Of a stretch of 31,625 bases of DNA, positions 10,840 to 27,515 are shown in pieces. The position numbers and the translations under genes were made by a program. Numbering within the stretch: position 1 is the stretch's first letter; every line of letters starts with the position of its first letter. The stretch is from the IMG/VR virus record IMGVR_UViG_3300030943_000118. One strand, written 5' to 3'. This stretch comes from a virus. The notes under the pieces are model-generated. The model was not told the DNA's origin. It was given only the letters and a program-made list of their open reading frames with translations, and ran no database searches.

Positions 10840-11247
10840 CTACAAGTCAAATGGAAGAGTCGTATCATCATCCATAACCGGGTAGACTCCATTGTCTACT
10901 GTTGGCGCGACGGGTCTCGGTGCTGACTGCTCTTTTGCTTTTCCATTGCAAAACTCAAACGATTCAACAACCAAATCAGTGACGTAAACCTTGCCACCGT
11001 CCTTGTCGTACGATCTTGTCTGCAGATCGCCCTCGACCATGATTTTGTCGCCCTTAGCAAAATACTGTGCGATCAGTTCAGCGGTCTTTCTCCATGCGGT
11101 ACAGGTAAACCAATCCGTCTGCTTCTCTCCGCTTGCGTCCTTAAATTTGCGGGTACAGGCAATGTTGAATGAGCAAAACGGGATCTGTGACGCTGTTGTC
11201 TTGAGTTCAATATCTTTTCCGATCGTTCCGATTCCGTAAAATTTCAT
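10840..11247 (-). CDS. ssb: single-stranded DNA-binding protein
   Basis: OB-fold-like core (WFTCTAWRK...GDKIMVEGDLQTRSYDKDGGKVYVTDLVVESFEF) and an acidic C-terminal tail ending DDDTTLPFDL. Confidence 0.85.
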   Translation of the reverse strand: MKFYGIGTIGKDIELKTTASQIPFCSFNIACTRKFKDASGEKQTDWFTCTAWRKTAELIAQYFAKGDKIMVEGDLQTRSYDKDGGKVYVTDLVVESFEFCNGKAKEQSAPRPVAPTVDNGVYPVMDDDTTLPFDL

Positions 11248-11257
11248 AAAATCCTCC

Positions 11258-11473
11258 TTAATATTCTGCTGCTGTTCCTTTTTGAGCGTCTTTATCCATC
11301 AGTTCCTTGAGCCATTCACTTTCGATATCCGGCTTGAATCTTGATTTGTCTTTGTCCCTGTTGGGTCTGTCCTTGCAATCGGCGCAGTTTGTGTATCTTA
11401 TCTCGCTTAGAATCAGATATCGGCCATCCATGCAACCGGCGCACTTTGTCCCCTTTAACCGACCGTCAATCAT
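11258..11473 (-). CDS. small zinc-finger protein (71 aa, CxxC...CxxC)
   Basis: Start overlaps the 3' end of the upstream ATPase gene. Confidence 0.5.
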   Translation of the reverse strand: MIDGRLKGTKCAGCMDGRYLILSEIRYTNCADCKDRPNRDKDKSRFKPDIESEWLKELMDKDAQKGTAAEY

Positions 11474-12380
11474 TTATTAAGTCCCTCCATGCGTACCGAA
11501 TCTCCTGACCGTCGCAGGACATCTGTTTGCTTTGTCTGTCAAAAAACAGATCGGCCATTTTGTCCATCACTCCCAGATCCCTGTTTTTGGCAACCTCTAA
11601 AATATTGCTGCACTGTAACAACGTGTGATCTTCGGGCCAGCGAAACAATGTTTTTGCGCATCTCTTAAAATCACTGCTCACTCTGTGAAGTAAAAATACA
11701 TTGTCTGCAGCATTGGTAAGATCAGCGGTGCCGGATATGTCGTCAATTCTCAAGATCCCCGATTCCGTTTTTCGAGGATGAGCAACAAGAACGATATGAA
11801 CATTTGTTTCTTCTGCAAACTTTTTCAAATTCCAAATAAACTCTGTCTGTTTCGCGTTTCGGTTTGCGTCCGATGCTCCAATGTCTATGCTCATCAGATT
11901 ATCCAGGATGATCACATCAACGCCCTTTACCTCCACGCAGTGCCGCAACATCCCAAAAAGTACATCTAGCTGATTCCCGTAATTGTTGTTGTAAACAAAC
12001 ATCCGCTGATCCAGCCACTGTTTGATCGGAGTCACAACCTCCTGCATTACTTTGAAGTAGTTTTCGTGTTTTGTTGCCAGGGTGTAAGATCTTCCTGCGG
12101 CTAACAGGTATGTCCATTCAAAAACCCTTGACTCGTTCATCTCTCCGGAAAACAGAGCCACCTTTTTATTTTCCTGTACTACCTGCAAAGCTATCTGCGT
12201 TAAGATTGTTGACTTGCCTGCTGCGCGAAATCCAGAGAATACAGACATTTCTTTTTTGTTCAGCCCAATGATCCACTTATCAATCAACCAGATGCCTGTT
12301 TTTATTGACACGATCTGGCTTCGGTCTTTGGGCTTTGCGGTCATGCTTGTAAAAAACCACTTGCCTTTATCCTCGTTCAC
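11466..12380 (-). CDS. DnaB-like replicative helicase / RecA-fold ATPase
   Basis: Walker A GFRAAGKST, Walker B VIILDNL; 304 aa; sits between the replisome organiser and SSB. Confidence 0.65.
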   Translation of the reverse strand: MNEDKGKWFFTSMTAKPKDRSQIVSIKTGIWLIDKWIIGLNKKEMSVFSGFRAAGKSTILTQIALQVVQENKKVALFSGEMNESRVFEWTYLLAAGRSYTLATKHENYFKVMQEVVTPIKQWLDQRMFVYNNNYGNQLDVLFGMLRHCVEVKGVDVIILDNLMSIDIGASDANRNAKQTEFIWNLKKFAEETNVHIVLVAHPRKTESGILRIDDISGTADLTNAADNVFLLHRVSSDFKRCAKTLFRWPEDHTLLQCSNILEVAKNRDLGVMDKMADLFFDRQSKQMSCDGQEIRYAWRDLIND

Positions 12381-13072
12381 AAATCAAAGCCCCCTCCTGC
12401 ATTTTTTATCGGTCCTGCCTTTTTTCCACCGCCTTGGTTCAGATACCCCTCAAACTTATTTGAAAACAGTGTTTCCGGTCTCAGGTACTTTTGCATGTCG
12501 GTTCCAGACCATTCAGCAACCTTGACATCGATAACCGTGTAAAAGCTTTCGAGGGTAAATTTTTCATTCATTCTCGCTTTTATCAGGTCTTTGGTTTTTT
12601 GAGAGGTATGCATATAAGATGTTCCGGCTTTCAAGTTTAAGTAATCAACAATGGTTCTGTATGGCAGTCTTTCCTCTCTCTCTTCACTCTCTTTCTTATC
12701 TATAGTTTCAGTTTCAGTTTCAGTTTCCATATGTTGAACATATGATTTACATGTGTTTAACATATCTTTATCATGTGTACCCTTTTTACTTGCTCTGTTC
12801 TCGCTTCTGCTCTCCGAATAGGCAATTCTTCTGTTTGACTCCTTTTCGAGCTTGATGTTGAAGTACAGCCCGTTTTCATCAATTTTGAAATGTTTGTAAA
12901 TGTCTTTATCATATGATTTACACATCTTCAACATATCTTCTTCTGATAATCGCCCGTTTTGATGCTCGTAACACATGATCCTTATGTACTTTCCGACCTG
13001 TTCGTCCGTCATTAACATCGTTCCAGACAAAAAGTCAGAAGTATAAAATAGAAATGCAGGATCTTTTGCCAT
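12377..13072 (-). CDS. replication initiation protein (replisome organiser, DnaD-like C-terminal region)
   Basis: 231 aa; C-terminal LPYRTIVDYLNLKAGTSYMHTSQKTKDLIKARMNEKFTLESFYTVIDVKVAEWSG resembles the conserved C-terminus of phage replisome organisers (from memory); contains internal DNA and protein repeats. Confidence 0.6.
   Translation of the reverse strand: MAKDPAFLFYTSDFLSGTMLMTDEQVGKYIRIMCYEHQNGRLSEEDMLKMCKSYDKDIYKHFKIDENGLYFNIKLEKESNRRIAYSESRSENRASKKGTHDKDMLNTCKSYVQHMETETETETIDKKESEEREERLPYRTIVDYLNLKAGTSYMHTSQKTKDLIKARMNEKFTLESFYTVIDVKVAEWSGTDMQKYLRPETLFSNKFEGYLNQGGGKKAGPIKNAGGGFDL
12705..12947. repeat. iteron-like repeats inside the replisome organiser gene; candidate origin of replication
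   Basis: Seen in sequence: four tandem GTTTCA/GTTTCC hexamers (12705..12728); 13-mer CATATGATTTACA at 12739 and 12910; 10-mer AACATATCTT at 12759 and 12930; both pairs spaced 171 bp, AT-rich. Confidence 0.4.
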
Positions 13073-13606
13073 TTAATTACCTCCCTTCCAGGATGCATTC
13101 ATCCTGTTTATTTCTTCCGGCGTCATGGTCTCTATTCCGATTTCCTTAGCCTCTGATACAACGCCATTGATCAGCGTTGCCATTTGCTTACTGTCGTATA
13201 AACTTGACCCAAAATAGTAAAGTAGCTGTGTTCCCTCCCCGTTCTTTGTCTGCCCTACTTCCTCTGTCAATTTGTAAAGTTGCTTGAACATTTCAACCGC
13301 TTCGTTCTTGACAACAACATAGGTATATCTGCCGTAATCCTTGAGCGCTTTCAAATACAGTTCGTCTTTTGTCGTGTTCAGCACTTCCGCCATTTTCCCG
13401 AGTAGCGCCCACAAATACCCGTTGCTGTCCAGACTTCTTCGCTCCCTGTGTACCTTTATCTCGCAGTCAAGCGCCTTGCCCTTATCCGTTGCTGTCTTGA
13501 GTTCTTCAAGCGATTCAAGGCCGTCTCGCGACTTGAGCGTGATGATAATTTCCGGCTTCATGCCGGCGTTGAATTGTAGGCGAATTTGGCTTGCTTGCGA
13601 TTTCAA
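13073..13606 (-). CDS. hypothetical protein (177 aa), replication/recombination module
   Basis: Tightly packed ORF; no family recognised. Confidence 0.6.
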   Translation of the reverse strand: MKSQASQIRLQFNAGMKPEIIITLKSRDGLESLEELKTATDKGKALDCEIKVHRERRSLDSNGYLWALLGKMAEVLNTTKDELYLKALKDYGRYTYVVVKNEAVEMFKQLYKLTEEVGQTKNGEGTQLLYYFGSSLYDSKQMATLINGVVSEAKEIGIETMTPEEINRMNASWKGGN

Positions 13607-13854
13607 AGATACGACCTCCCAAACTCTTTAATAAAATCATTCCGGCTTCCACGATTCAGTTCATACTCTGTTTGACACATCGCCTTGCACTTGTTCCAAA
13701 ACTCATAATCCTGATGTATGTTCATGTGGCATTCGTGACAGAGGTCAAGCATGTAGTTGTACTTTTCAGATCGCCTTTTATTTGCCGCGTTGAAAATGTG
13801 ATGCCTATCTGTTGCCGTTCTTCCGCAACCCTTGCAGGCTGTCCACTCTTTCAC
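13603..13854 (-). CDS. small HNH-fold zinc-binding protein (putative nuclease)
   Basis: CKGCG...DRHHIFNAANKRR...YNY...LCHECHMNIH fits the CxxC / HH / N / CxxCH pattern of HNH nucleases. Confidence 0.5.
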   Translation of the reverse strand: MKEWTACKGCGRTATDRHHIFNAANKRRSEKYNYMLDLCHECHMNIHQDYEFWNKCKAMCQTEYELNRGSRNDFIKEFGRSYL

Positions 13855-14600
13855 CTTAAGACCGGCGGCACTTCCATTTTCTGCGCCATGTCCTTAAGCT
13901 GGTCGATGTTCAAATCAGTGAGTTTTTTGACTTTTGCATCGAGCTTGTTGTATGCCGTGAGTGCGGTGGAGTAGATGTCATAGCAGAATCCATCTGCAGA
14001 TCCTTTGTCCTTGCCTATGGCGTCGGGATAGAGCAGGTGACCGATATGATTGATAATCTTCTGCTTATCGTCTACGGGAGGCGAGGGAGGCACCGGCGGC
14101 ACTACAGGCGTGATTGTCGCGGTCTGCGGCTTAGGCGTTGTCTTTGGTTTGGTTTCTTCAGGTGTTCCTGCGTCGGGATCCGGCATTTCTTCTGTCGGTA
14201 TGCAAAACACCTGAAATAGTGCGTACTTAAACGCGATTGCCATTGCCTTGTTGCTGCCCTTGTCTCCGGTGTCGTCTGATTCTCCAACCGTTACCGCCTC
14301 AACAAAAGATCCGTCATCGGCATAAAAAGCGAATTTAATTTTGAAGATTGACAGATGCGAGACACCGCCGTTCTTTGTCTCTCTGTCGCTCCTGTTCTGC
14401 TCTAAAACAGAGGGAACAACAAAGACGTGATACTTTGCCAGCATCGGCTGCAATGCGTTCATAACGTCGTCAATACCCCTGTACATGAACCCTTGCTGTA
14501 CATTCTTCTTGCCTTTTGCGACTGCTCCGATTTCGCCAATGATCGAGCATATAGCCGCGTAGATTTTCGGTTCATAAACTTTCAGTGTTTCGGTGCTCAT
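13851..14600 (-). CDS. erf: ERF-family single-strand annealing recombinase
   Basis: YRGIDDVMNALQPMLAKYHVFVVP...GDKGSNKAMAIAFKYALFQVFCIP matches the ERF core as I recall it; Pro-rich linker and C-terminal tail. Confidence 0.7.
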   Translation of the reverse strand: MSTETLKVYEPKIYAAICSIIGEIGAVAKGKKNVQQGFMYRGIDDVMNALQPMLAKYHVFVVPSVLEQNRSDRETKNGGVSHLSIFKIKFAFYADDGSFVEAVTVGESDDTGDKGSNKAMAIAFKYALFQVFCIPTEEMPDPDAGTPEETKPKTTPKPQTATITPVVPPVPPSPPVDDKQKIINHIGHLLYPDAIGKDKGSADGFCYDIYSTALTAYNKLDAKVKKLTDLNIDQLKDMAQKMEVPPVLR

Positions 14601-15976: not shown

Positions 15977-16741
15977 TTAGTTGTAGTTTTCTGCCTCTTT
16001 CCGTGTAATGAAAAAGTGAATCCCGGTAGAACATTCAATCCATCTATCCTCGTCGAAGTTATCAACACGGACGGTCTCGCCTTTGCGGTAAACAAAACTC
16101 TTGTCATATCCAGAAACCGCTTCATCCGCTCCGATTATTTCGAGCACTACGGCTTCTGAACATCTGCATTTTCGGGTAGTTGCAGAAGATCTCTTTCCGG
16201 TGACCAATAGCTTGACGATCACACCAGATTTTCGAGAATCGTTTCCGTCTCTGGCTGTTTTCCAAGCTATAAAATCGCCTTCTTCGGGGCAGGATAGAGC
16301 GAAAAACGCAGTTGTTTCGTTGTATTCTGCGCGGCTGAGGTCTGCGCTCCTGAGGTCTGCGCGGCTGAGGTTTGCGCGGCTGAGGTCTGCGCTCCTGAGG
16401 TCTGCGCGGCTGAGGTCTGCGCCACTGAGGTCTGCGCGGCTGAGGTCTGCGCTCCTGAGGTCTGCGCGGCTGAGGTTTGCGCGGCTGAGGTCTGCGCGGC
16501 TGAGGTCTGCGCCACTGAGGTTTGCGCGGCTGAGGTCTGCGCGGCTGAGGTCTGCGCTCCTGAGGTCTGCGCGGCTGAGGTCTGCGCTCCTGAGGTCTGC
16601 GCGGCTGAGGTCTGCGCTCCTGAGGTCTGCGAGGCTGAGGTCTGCGCCACTGAGGTTTGCGCGCCTACCGCCGCGATCGTATAGCCATTCTGTATGCAGT
16701 TTTAAAATCTCTTTTAGTTCGTCTGCTGTGTATGTTTTCAA
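15977..16741 (-). CDS. pentapeptide-repeat protein (about 24 A(D/N)LSx units) with an uncharacterised C-terminal domain of about 110 aa
   Basis: ANLSGADLSLADLRSADLSRADLRSADLSRADL... with strict 5-residue period; apparent TTG start with GGAGGG 7 nt upstream. Confidence 0.8.
   Translation of the reverse strand: MKTYTADELKEILKLHTEWLYDRGGRRANLSGADLSLADLRSADLSRADLRSADLSRADLRSADLSRADLSRANLSGADLSRADLSRANLSRADLRSADLSRADLSGADLSRADLRSADLSRANLSRADLRSADLSRAEYNETTAFFALSCPEEGDFIAWKTARDGNDSRKSGVIVKLLVTGKRSSATTRKCRCSEAVVLEIIGADEAVSGYDKSFVYRKGETVRVDNFDEDRWIECSTGIHFFITRKEAENYN
16322..16665. repeat. about 23 tandem near-identical 15-bp units (ctgaggtctgcgcgg and variants) encoding the pentapeptide repeats
   Basis: Seen directly in the sequence; the variants differ at one or two positions. 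Confidence 0.9.
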
Positions 16742-19965: not shown

Positions 19966-20205
19966 TTAAGCTGATTTGGAAAGTCTTTCAGGGGAAAATC
20001 CAAGAAGATAATCAACGGAGCACCCAAACGTATCTGCCATTTTTACAAGATATTCCGACGGACACCGCATATTGTCGGATTCCCACGAAGACAGTGTTTT
20101 CGATGAAATTCCGAGTTCTTTTGCTAGCGTTACCTGCGACTTTCTAAGCCGTACCCTCTCTGATCCAATTCTATTTTCGTTTGCTGAAAATGATGAAGCC
20201 ATTTG
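19966..20205 (-). CDS. XRE-family HTH regulator, Cro-like (first gene of the early operon)
   Basis: HTH LRKSQVTLAKELGISSKTLSSWE and C-terminal ADTFGCSVDYLLG; likely start MASSF at 20205 (AGGAGGGAGG upstream). Confidence 0.75.
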   Translation of the reverse strand, partial: QMASSFSANENRIGSERVRLRKSQVTLAKELGISSKTLSSWESDNMRCPSEYLVKMADTFGCSVDYLLGFSPERLSKSA

Positions 20206-20367
20206 CCTCCCTCCTTTCTCCAAGTCTTTCTTGTAGTCTTGGCATTAGCTTATAACTTAAAATTGTATGTGTCAACGGATTTTAGGAACAATTAAAAGAA
20301 TTATTTGTAGTTTTTATTGTTTTCTACAAATTCTTGTAGTACAATGCGAATACAAGGAGGTGATAGC
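20206..20367. promoter_or_regulatory. divergent switch region with promoters and operator-like repeats
   Basis: Minus-strand -35 TTGACA (20270..20275) with a TATAAG-like -10; plus-strand -10 TACAAT (20340..20345); inverted repeat ATTTGTAG-N13-CTACAAAT (20303..20331); 10-bp direct repeat TTCTTGTAGT at 20228 and 20331. Confidence 0.6.
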
Positions 20368-20721
20368 TTGGCTATACAAATGAGACTTAAGGAATTACGC
20401 AAAAAACGGGGATACACGCAAGTAAGCATGGCGGCCGCTTTGGGCGTAAATTACGGTTCATATCGAAATTGGGAACAGGGCGTAAATCAGCCCGACAATT
20501 ATGATATCGAGAAAATTATTGATCTTTTGAATACAACAGCGGACTACTTATATGGGAGAACAAATAATCCAGAAAGAAGTGTTTCTTATTCTGATCCAGA
20601 TAAGGCTTGGCTTATGGATAAAATAGAAAAATCAGGTAAGGTCGAGTTGTCGCAGATTAGAAGGGTTTGGGAGGCATTTTATGAAGAGCAGAAACGCCCA
20701 AATATCAACGTTTTCAGATAG
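20368..20721 (+). CDS. XRE-family HTH regulator, CI-like repressor candidate (no peptidase domain)
   Basis: HTH LRKKRGYTQVSMAAALGV...; TTG 20368 lies 7 nt after AGGAGG (alternative ATG 20380; ORF-track start 20317). Confidence 0.7.
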   Translation: MAIQMRLKELRKKRGYTQVSMAAALGVNYGSYRNWEQGVNQPDNYDIEKIIDLLNTTADYLYGRTNNPERSVSYSDPDKAWLMDKIEKSGKVELSQIRRVWEAFYEEQKRPNINVFR

Positions 20722-25313: not shown

Positions 25314-27515
25314 TCACCTGTTTTTCTTAATGGCGTAATTGTCCGCCGCTTTGACAACGATTTCCTCTATCTGATTACCGCCTACATAGACCGGAATAAA
25401 GATGTTCTCCGGCCCTTTTCTCGTGACAGTTTGAGGCAGATTGGCAAGATTGGACATAAATGCCCGGAGCGCCGTTGTCTCGTTTGGTACTGACCTACCG
25501 TAAGCCTGCCCCTGCATCTGCGACACCATGCCGCTTGCAGATACAGCCTGTGCTGCCTTGAGTGCATTCTCAGATGATTCTACTGATGCATCCTCAAGCA
25601 AGTAGGCGTTATCGTCAACGCCCTTTGCCGCACCTGCCGGAATTTGTTTACCGACCTGTTTCGCGAATACCCGCGACGGTGATTTGATTCCAAGAAAATC
25701 TTTAACGGTTTGCAGCGCCTTGGCAGCAGCTTCTTTGGCGGCATCTCCGAGCTTCGAAGCTGCATCCGTGATTCCTTTTTTCACTCCATCGATGATGTTC
25801 TTTCCGAGCGTACCCCAGTCGATTTTCCCCAAGGCTTCCTTGATCTTGTCGAATATTTCGGGTCCTGATTCGGACAGGGCGCTCGCCGCGTCGATGATTC
25901 CAGTTAAGAGGGCTCCTATGATCTCAATAGCGGCTTCTATGATCATCGGGAGCGCATTAATAAGCGCCGTTACAATAGAGATGATGATGTCCGGCACCAT
26001 TTCGATCAGCGCCGGGATTGCGGAAACAAGCCCCTCTATGAGAGCGATAAGAATCTGCACGGCCGTCTCGATAATCATCGGGAGGTTTGCCATTAAGGTG
26101 TCGACTATGGTTGTGATCAATGTGGGAAGCATAGCAACCAGTTGTGGTCTTGCAGATGCTATTCCCGTGATCAGTGCCAAAAGAATCTGAATGGCTGCCG
26201 TGATGATAAGCGGCAGATTGTCGATAAGCACCTGTACGATTGTACCGACAGTGTCAACCATCATCTGAATAAGTTCAGGGATCATCCCTGTGATGCCATT
26301 TACAAGAGCAAGTAGAATCTGAATTCCTGCATCAAGAATTAATGGCAGGTTTTCCATGAGGGTTGATACAACCGTCGTAACGCATGTAACCATGGCGGGG
26401 ATAAGTGTAGGAAGCGCCGCCGCTATGCCCGTGATAAGGCTTGTAAGCAGCGTCATTCCGATAGTAAACAGTAGAGGTAAGTTTGTCGTAATGGTTGTAA
26501 TGAGTCCGGTAACTATTCCGACTCCTGCGGTTGCCAGTGTAGGAAGCTGTGCAATTAAAGCATTAAGCAGTGTAGTAAGAAAGCTATTCGCCATAGTGAT
26601 TACAGCCGGCAGTTGAGCAGTGATCCCGCTAAGGATCTGCCCGACTACTCCGCCGGCCGCACTAATAAGCCCCGGTATGCCGTCCTTGGCGAAAGCATCA
26701 GTTAGAGTTGATACCATGCCGATAGCTTCAGGCAGGAGTGTCTTTGTCAGGCTATCCGAGATAGGCTTAACGACTTCGCCAACCAACGAATTAGCATTGT
26801 CCTTGAGTGTACTGATAAGTCCGTCGAATGTTGTCGACGCGGTTTCCATGCCCTTGTAGAACTGACCGCCCTCGGATGTTGCTGTCTTGAATGCAGCCGT
26901 GAGTTCGTCCGCGGATATTCCGCCCTTGGACATCCTGTCTGTGAGCTCCGACATTGATTCGCCGGTCTTTTCCGAGATGACTTTTAGCGGATTAAATCCT
27001 GCCTCGATCATCATCTGACAAGTCTCGCCGGTGAGCTTACCCATCGAATTGGCTTTACCGAATGCATTTGTAAGGGAACCGAGTTTTTCAGCGTTCCCGA
27101 GAGACACATCTCCGAGCATCGTGAGTATTCCAGTCGAATCATCAGCAGCCACGCCAAAAGCCAATAGGGTAGTTGTCGCCGTTGCAAGATCAGACATCTC
27201 AAACGGAGTAGCAGCTCCCAGCTTCTTGAGTTCATTGACCTTCGCTACAGCTGCCTCTTCGCTCCCAAGCATGGTCTTAAAATTTGCAGTGTAGTTTTCC
27301 ATTTGAGCATTGTATTTAACGCCGGAAACGACCAGAGCGCCCATGCCGGTACCAACTGCTGCAAGTGCTCCGACTGTGATGCCGGCCATGCCCGCCGCGG
27401 CTGATCCGATCGCTCCAAAGCCTTTGGATGCAAACGATCCAAGCCCCGACAAACTAGACTTAAAACCAGACTCATCTAGTTCGGTCCCGATCTTGATTGT
27501 GCCGTCGTTTGCCAT
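25314..27515 (-). CDS. tail tape measure protein
   Basis: 733 aa with Gly/Ala-rich N-terminus, repeated NLPxII...AIQILLALIxGI segments and a C-terminal SPSRV motif; sits between the chaperone genes and the distal tail genes. Confidence 0.85.
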   Translation of the reverse strand: MANDGTIKIGTELDESGFKSSLSGLGSFASKGFGAIGSAAAGMAGITVGALAAVGTGMGALVVSGVKYNAQMENYTANFKTMLGSEEAAVAKVNELKKLGAATPFEMSDLATATTTLLAFGVAADDSTGILTMLGDVSLGNAEKLGSLTNAFGKANSMGKLTGETCQMMIEAGFNPLKVISEKTGESMSELTDRMSKGGISADELTAAFKTATSEGGQFYKGMETASTTFDGLISTLKDNANSLVGEVVKPISDSLTKTLLPEAIGMVSTLTDAFAKDGIPGLISAAGGVVGQILSGITAQLPAVITMANSFLTTLLNALIAQLPTLATAGVGIVTGLITTITTNLPLLFTIGMTLLTSLITGIAAALPTLIPAMVTCVTTVVSTLMENLPLILDAGIQILLALVNGITGMIPELIQMMVDTVGTIVQVLIDNLPLIITAAIQILLALITGIASARPQLVAMLPTLITTIVDTLMANLPMIIETAVQILIALIEGLVSAIPALIEMVPDIIISIVTALINALPMIIEAAIEIIGALLTGIIDAASALSESGPEIFDKIKEALGKIDWGTLGKNIIDGVKKGITDAASKLGDAAKEAAAKALQTVKDFLGIKSPSRVFAKQVGKQIPAGAAKGVDDNAYLLEDASVESSENALKAAQAVSASGMVSQMQGQAYGRSVPNETTALRAFMSNLANLPQTVTRKGPENIFIPVYVGGNQIEEIVVKAADNYAIKKNR

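Follow-up and report, generated by a model that had tools for sequence, protein, structure and literature searches.

The stretch of DNA considered here, viral record IMGVR_UViG_3300030943_000118 of the IMG/VR collection, is 31,625 nucleotides long and is referred to in its entirety as the window. Its replication and recombination module includes a gene for a two-domain replication initiator, and within the coding sequence of that gene lie a candidate replication origin consisting of two arrays of short tandem repeats (A and B), a run of tandem hexamers, and a purine-rich tract (Table 1). The start of the next gene downstream, encoding a helicase-type ATPase with DnaB_C and AAA_25 matches, overlaps the initiator stop, and a single-stranded DNA-binding protein (SSB) gene is found further along the same module. 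Upstream, on the same strand, are genes for NinB/Orf, ERF and DUF1351 proteins. The rest of the window is siphovirus-like, with terminase, portal, tape measure and endolysin genes, and an XRE repressor pair.

Both arrays are formed from an 11-bp unit with a palindromic 6-bp CATATG core. Read on the coding strand, the units of array B are ACACATGATAA, AGATATGTTAA, ACACATGTAAA, TCATATGTTCA and ACATATG(GAAA), the core appearing as CAYATG or GATATG, while those of array A are AGATATGTTGA, AGATGTGTAAA and TCATATGATAA, with two degenerate units extending the array to 12884. Array A and units 2–4 of array B are identical at 27 of 33 positions. Tandem Repeats Finder (TRF) reports a period of 11 with 4.6 copies at 12728–12778, and a second patch at 12884–12940. 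An initial annotation of the window had picked out two pairs of repeat words in this region, CATATGATTTACA (12739 and 12910) and AACATATCTT (12759 and 12930), and each is present exactly twice in the 31.6 kb, against chance expectations of 0.01 and 0.08, respectively, with 171 bp separating the members of each pair. This observation was nonetheless an understatement, as both pairs are pieces of one imperfect repeat of ~33 bp, itself made of three 11-bp tandem units, and belong to the two arrays. When the whole window was scanned for phased hexamers (periods 8–14, at most one mismatch), CATATG at 12728 with a period of 11 was the sole five-copy array, and in 60 dinucleotide-preserving shuffles phased arrays never exceeded four copies. 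No further repeat cluster was detected in the replication module. Five-unit array B sits at the boundary between the two domains of the initiator, in a disordered linker.

The hexamer run directly abuts array B and encodes, on the minus strand, the four consecutive Glu-Thr dipeptides given in the initial annotation. The count of four given there for the hexamers is correct in the AGTTTC register, in which TRF finds 4.0 exact copies; the GTTTCA register in which they had been described contains only three, plus GTTTCC. A 99%-identical metagenomic protein of 229 residues (P0001) has one ET unit (6 bp) fewer, so hexamer copy number varies between near-identical phages. The purine-rich (GA-rich) tract beyond the run is a candidate part of the unwinding region, and no 60-nt segment of the window exceeds the one from 12669 in purine/pyrimidine strand asymmetry (0.82, a tied maximum). 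The surroundings had been described as AT-rich, in agreement with the 250-bp segment from 12692, which ties for the lowest GC content of the window (0.328 vs 0.46 overall). Moreover, two of the seven least stable 40-bp segments, at 12881 and 12740, fall on the arrays, which are ~3 standard deviations less stable than the window average. Next to array B and the hexamers is DNA that, within the replication module, is the least stable and shows the greatest strand asymmetry. Other AT-rich spots, at 20157–20340, 22748 and 19278, were considered as the origin and set aside, as they carry no repeat arrays.

The initiator consists of a DUF1376-like N-terminal domain (residues ~1–96), a linker (residues ~97–135), and a C-terminal Phg_2220_C domain (PF09524; residues 141–212), the last matched over the full profile with 102.5 bits against a cutoff of 27. 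Residues ~100–134 are predicted to be disordered. In the predicted structure the N domain is modelled with confidence (predicted local distance difference test score, pLDDT, 86) and is winged-helix-like, and the C domain is DnaD-like; a Foldseek comparison of the full-length model with the PDB returned no match with E < 1. Matches to the PHROG families 428 (‘replication initiation protein’) and 1701 (‘DnaD-like helicase loader’) were also obtained. DUF1376 (PF07120, the YdaU family) scores 14.9 bits on the window N domain (E 0.036), which is below the gathering threshold of 30.1 bits. Alignment of the N-domain family with residues 18–102 of YdaU (DUF1376) by hhalign gave a probability of 87.8% (E 3e-6), relatives L102 and L083 reach 23.1 and 35.9 bits, respectively, and some homologues carry a precomputed PF07120 match. 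Remote homology of the window N domain to DUF1376 is supported by these profile comparisons.

As 11 is not a multiple of three, successive units fall in different reading frames and one word is read three ways: GAT/CAT ATG (DM/HM), AAC ATA TGT (NIC), and xCA TAT GTT (S/T-Y-V). This three-frame reading explains the peptide ‘DM.NIC.TYV.HME’, which is conserved in homologues that are only ~50% identical. To follow the DNA itself, ~100 loci encoding the N domain were drawn from IMG/VR and GTDB genomes, and 69 non-identical genes, with a median pairwise amino acid identity of 0.56, were placed in a codon-threaded alignment. Constraint was measured at each codon by taking the sequences that carry the majority residue and computing what share of them uses the majority codon. 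This share is 0.92 for codons 44–54 (array A; Mann-Whitney p 6e-6) and 0.97 for codons 103–127 (array B and hexamers; p 1e-11), compared with 0.61 for the remaining 81 informative codons of the N-terminal region, the 69 homologues being phylogenetically related and the contrast between the zones and the rest being internal to one alignment. Among the fixed codons are ATA for Ile, TAT, CAT, and TCA/ACA.

The pattern of conservation follows the units. Anchored on the last CATATG, the core is conserved at 100% in unit 0, 93–96% in unit −1, 55–97% in unit −2 and 67–90% in unit −3, while the spacers between cores are conserved at 39–76%. Three in-phase units occur at the array A position in 59 of the 69 homologues, and in 66 the hexamer unit is GAAAAT or GAAACT. 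In the ET runs of 13 of these homologues, Thr is encoded by ACT in every case (52/52, vs 38% elsewhere in those genes) and Glu by GAA (55/55, vs 80% elsewhere). Phased arrays of at least three units number 98 in 45.9 kb of initiator genes and zero in 289.9 kb of flanking DNA, and are restricted to this gene family. In one lineage (L041, L042, L044, L155–L171) GCATATG replaces ACATATG in both arrays, a concerted change. The arrays and hexamer run are almost certainly a functional DNA element.

A 51-residue open reading frame (ORF) in another frame of the minus strand (12757–12912) begins within array A and ends within array B. Between the arrays, homologues show no conservation of synonymous sites; this ORF was therefore rejected as the source of the constraint, and probably does not represent a gene.

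The same layout, with unrelated words, is found in a distant GC-rich clade whose N domains are 31–33% identical, one member of which (L083) combines the DUF1376 match given above with Phg_2220_C. Triplet units in this clade include CGGTTCAACCG (read RFNR / GST / VVQP), ATAGCACAGCC, TGGCTATGTTC and GCGGTTGACYG, some with a 12-bp period, and are located either in the N-domain-coding part (nt ~167–200) or in the linker (nt ~290–375). Downstream of the arrays are runs of TCTCCG, CTCCTA or TCTCCT, in three to four copies. Iteron words appear to fall into specificity groups. Within the CATATG clade, the sequence following the hexamer run is swapped among at least eight unrelated C-terminal types, of which two, Phg_2220_C and DnaB_2, are identified by Pfam. 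The genes downstream include those for DnaB helicases and a Toprim-DnaB_C primase-helicase, with a DnaB_C-only ATPase in the window. Viral metagenomes contain the N domain in abundance (at least 586 stretches of IMG/VR match it), and comparison at the DNA level with INPHARED identified no close cultured relative.

Table 1. Coordinates of the initiator locus and of repeat-bearing loci in relatives.
Feature	Position	Strand	Description
Replication initiator gene	12377–13072	−	231 residues, two-domain
Iteron array A	12906–12938	−	Three 11-bp units; residues 45–56, helix 2 and turn of the winged-helix-like domain
Iteron array B	12728–12778	−	Five 11-bp units; linker residues 99–115
Tandem hexamer run (GAAACT)x4	12704–12727	−	ETETETET, residues 116–123; abuts last iteron of array B
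Purine-rich (GA-rich) tract	12669–12703	−	Coding strand, downstream of hexamer run
DnaB_C/AAA_25 helicase-type ATPase gene	11466–12380	−	Pfam DnaB_C 6.9e-18, AAA_25 2.5e-18; PHROG 239, 19
SSB gene	10840–11247	−	Pfam SSB 4.4e-28; PHROG 44; downstream, replication module
ydaU repeats	L172 3472–3620		E. coli K-12 NC_000913.3 ~1421471–1421619
GC-rich clade loci	L083 1784–2644; L088 2998–3795; L173–L252		
C-terminal swap loci	L033, L037, L041, L093, L098, L100, L102, L116, L141, L170		

The initial annotation had regarded the iteron-like repeats in this gene as a plausible origin, and the proposal is strengthened from several directions: synonymous sites are conserved in the repeat zones alone, such arrays occur only in the initiator gene, the units are in helical phase, the DNA alongside melts easily, and a distant clade has the layout with different words. 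Together with the nature of the protein, the modularity of its C-terminus and the precedent of other phages, these lead to the reading that the repeats are very probably the replication origin of the phage, located within the gene whose product would recognise them.

In the mechanism proposed, the N-terminal DUF1376-like, winged-helix-like domain would bind the CATATG units, probably as dimers and, with one unit per helical turn, the protomers would be arrayed on one face of the DNA. Several protomers may assemble a nucleoprotein complex on array B, possibly bridging to array A ~170 bp away, and this complex would stress and open the adjacent (GAAACT)n and purine-rich, AT-rich DNA. The C-terminal Phg_2220_C domain would recruit to the opened DNA either the DnaB-type ATPase encoded downstream, its presumed partner, or host helicase-loading factors, after which SSB would stabilise the single strands. 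Binding of the repeats by the initiator is predicted from its winged-helix-like N domain and from the iteron words, which differ between N-domain clades. The N domain, iterons and hexamer run may behave as one specificity module, with the C domain as an exchangeable helicase adaptor.

Several observations weigh against this reading, or limit it. One of the two peptide patterns used to retrieve homologues was HMETE-like, and introduces ascertainment bias; the other was N-terminal, and brought in the EN-type majority. Some of the conservation of array A reflects the protein, since this array codes for a folded helix, and slippage, rather than selection, could keep hexamer units identical within one array. 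Arrays A and B are 168 to 261 bp apart, depending on the homologue, with no conserved helical phase or remainder modulo 11; a fixed looped geometry is therefore not supported and was dropped. The N domain is present in just one of 50,697 catalogued phage records, itself metagenomic, and in no PLSDB plasmid. Finally, the GC skew along the window shows no switch, but with every gene on the same strand it carries no information.

Of the competing explanations, the one that survives best, while still unlikely, has the origin elsewhere and takes the arrays as regulatory binding sites, serving autoregulation or copy control by the initiator, or bound by another phage or host factor. Constraint on the DNA and phasing do show a binding-site function without naming the process served. 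Each array also contains an antisense sigma-70-like match (10/12) on the plus strand, at 12746–12774 and 12885–12912, although two such matches against a shuffle expectation of 2.3 are probably by-products of the repeat sequence. The other very AT-rich region, at 20157–20340, could be brought forward in favour of an origin elsewhere, but it is a divergent XRE-regulator promoter without a repeat array, and the replication module offers no second repeat cluster. Moreover, a site at a domain boundary, with meltable DNA alongside and a helicase gene downstream, is the layout of proven in-gene origins.

It is very improbable that the constraint acts on the mRNA, with a structure of palindromic units controlling how the initiator message is translated, how stable it is, or how it is coupled to the helicase gene. 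Neighbouring CATATG palindromes can pair, giving a 16-bp stem at 12729–12765, folding of the region is slightly more favourable than that of shuffled sequences (z = −2.3), and pairing would also survive the GCATATG change seen in both arrays. However, RNA folding requires neither an exact 11-nt period nor triplets, arrays A and B are left unpaired with each other in the minimum-energy fold, and nothing is available to pair with the hexamer run or the purine tract. An Rfam scan of 11000–14500 gave only a sub-threshold chance match, and relatives with unrelated words retain the period but not a structure. There is likewise little chance that the conserved boundary DNA is mainly a homologous-recombination ‘linker’ for exchanging C-terminal adaptors between phages. 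The swaps do occur exactly after the CATATG-(GAAAYT)n junction, which is itself ~100% conserved, yet this leaves unexplained the 11-bp phasing, the position of array A within the N domain, and the different words in the same layout of other clades; if the site is a conserved origin, exchange of modules there would be expected as a by-product, and does not amount to an alternative. The least credible explanation, in which the repeats have no function as DNA and merely reflect an internally duplicated peptide motif (as the initial annotation had itself raised) and an acidic linker of low complexity, can point to the resemblance of DMLKMCKSY (residues 46–54) to DMLNTCKSY (residues 103–111) and to ETETETET as a simple dipeptide repeat, but is contradicted by the same 7-nt word read in three frames within each array, by synonymous positions fixed here only (ATA for Ile, TAT, CAT, TCA/ACA, and the invariant ACT for Thr), by the exclusivity and concerted change described above, by the placement of one copy in a helix whose fold is predicted with confidence and of the other in a linker predicted to be disordered, and by distant relatives that retain the period-11 layout with unrelated peptides.

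That the repeats constitute an in-gene origin can be set against origins already characterised. In lambda, oriλ is located in the middle of gene O and combines iterons with an AT-rich tract, extra iterons adding residues to O; the iterons number four in lambda and six in Stx phages (PMC7466680, a study that also recoded Stx-phage iterons synonymously). As in lambda, the origin proposed here is situated between an N-terminal DNA-binding part and a C-terminal helicase-recruiting part, with iterons followed by a melting AT-rich tract; iteron number alters protein length, and the gene of the helicase partner directly follows. Unlike lambda, in which the iterons are ~19 bp, the window has 11-bp units with a 6-bp palindromic core, two arrays, and a 6-bp tandem run, and one of its arrays is within the part coding for the DNA-binding domain. 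The lambda and window proteins are presumably unrelated in sequence.

The precedent cited in the initial annotation, that of the lactococcal phages TP901-1 and Tuc2009, is correct: TP901-1 ORF13 and Tuc2009 Rep2009 bind direct repeats within their own genes, which serve as the origin (PMC8965321). The Tuc2009 genome record carries the note ‘contains origin of replication’, and the rep genes contain three copies of a 15-bp period in TP901-1 and 3.8 copies of AGGATAGGATAGGTA in Tuc2009. As in these phages, the repeats of the window are mid-gene, before the C-terminal domain, and an SSB gene is nearby. The analogy does not extend to the protein, as the window gene is not a homologue of the lactococcal organisers: BLASTP against the window protein gave E values of 0.99 and 1.3, and no Pfam domain is shared, TP901-1 ORF13 comprising HTH_36 and DnaB_2, and Tuc2009 Rep having Rep_Org_C, whereas the window protein combines a DUF1376-like domain with Phg_2220_C. 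Since the lactococcal period of 15 bp is a multiple of three, those repeats are read in one frame. The likeness to the lactococcal organisers is functional and architectural, and not one of family membership.

Iterons of theta plasmids (P1, F, R6K and pSC101 type) provide a further comparison, being direct-repeat arrays bound by a winged-helix initiator, spaced by whole helical turns and adjoining an AT-rich unwinding element. They are ~17–22 bp in length, with ~22-bp spacing, and lie outside the rep coding sequence, whereas in the window the period is 11 bp and the arrays are within coding sequence.

Closer to the window in terms of protein family is YdaU of the E. coli Rac prophage, the founding DUF1376 protein (92 bits to DUF1376). 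Like the initiator gene of the window, ydaU (1421119–1421976 in NC_000913.3) belongs to a replication module, in which it precedes ydaV, a loader-like gene for an ATP-binding protein. Its linker contains four AAGCAGATGTTCAA-like words (~1421471–1421562), at spacings of 33, 33 and 12 bp, followed by (ATAAAG)x3.3, and the word resembles CATATGTTCAA of the window. Because the Rac repeats are 33 bp apart and hence in one frame, they cannot by themselves separate conservation of DNA from that of protein, and a YdaU search of viral contigs yielded near-identical Rac copies only, which are useless for comparison. An origin termed oriJ is active in Rac (PMC3945230); the literature searched did not say where it maps with respect to ydaU.

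By analogy, the arrangement would work like the known in-gene phage origins of lambda (ori/O) and TP901-1/Tuc2009. The features in which it varies are the 11-bp period that forces three-frame reading, the triplets, the presence of two arrays, the 6-bp tandem run, and an initiator of the DUF1376 type, a family rarely mentioned in the literature searched. A broader proposition, tentative and rather doubtful as a whole, is that DUF1376-type initiators, including YdaU of Rac, represent a large class of phage origins that share a fixed ‘grammar’ within coding sequence. This would begin with 11-bp iteron triplets (3 x 11 = 33 bp = 11 codons) at a site coding for the winged helix and at a linker site, and continue with a 6-bp tandem run, the iteron words diversifying into specificity groups alongside the N domain. 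Under the same tentative proposition, the hexamer run could be a distinct origin component, such as a periodic track for single-strand binding or unwinding, with a logic like that of DnaA-trios, and not simply a linker.

If the repeats are an origin, DUF1376, a domain of unknown function, would gain a concrete and testable one, in a family that has a member in E. coli K-12 (YdaU) and that is as plentiful in IMG/VR as described above while being nearly absent from cultured-phage collections. The probable origin of an uncultured phage group is narrowed to ~270 bp. It also presents a clean case of coding sequence overprinted with a DNA signal that is translated in three frames, which can mislead analyses of protein motifs and selection, and which could serve as a signature for annotating origins in metagenomic phage contigs. 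In addition, an N domain and iteron module with swappable C-terminal adaptors would show phages recombining replication specificity and helicase choice.

Elsewhere in the window, the 100-bp stretch of lowest GC content (20244, GC 0.23) is positioned between divergent XRE-type regulator genes (19990–20720), in what is likely an immunity or lysis-lysogeny switch region; no integrase was found among the ORFs scanned. The NinB/Orf-like gene (13073–13606) contains a 25-nt direct repeat at 13416–13507, 84% identical and 67 bp apart. A pentapeptide-repeat protein with a C-terminal DUF5758 domain is encoded at 15977–16741 on the minus strand, and its pentapeptide repeats correspond to the strongest tandem repeat of the window, a 15-bp array of 22.5 copies at 16326–16663, which also gives rise, as by-products, to long ORFs in other frames and on the opposite strand. 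Three 32-nt direct repeats with 132-bp (44-codon) spacing, at 25921–26216 within the tape-measure gene (25314–27515), are typical of the internal repeats of tape-measure proteins.

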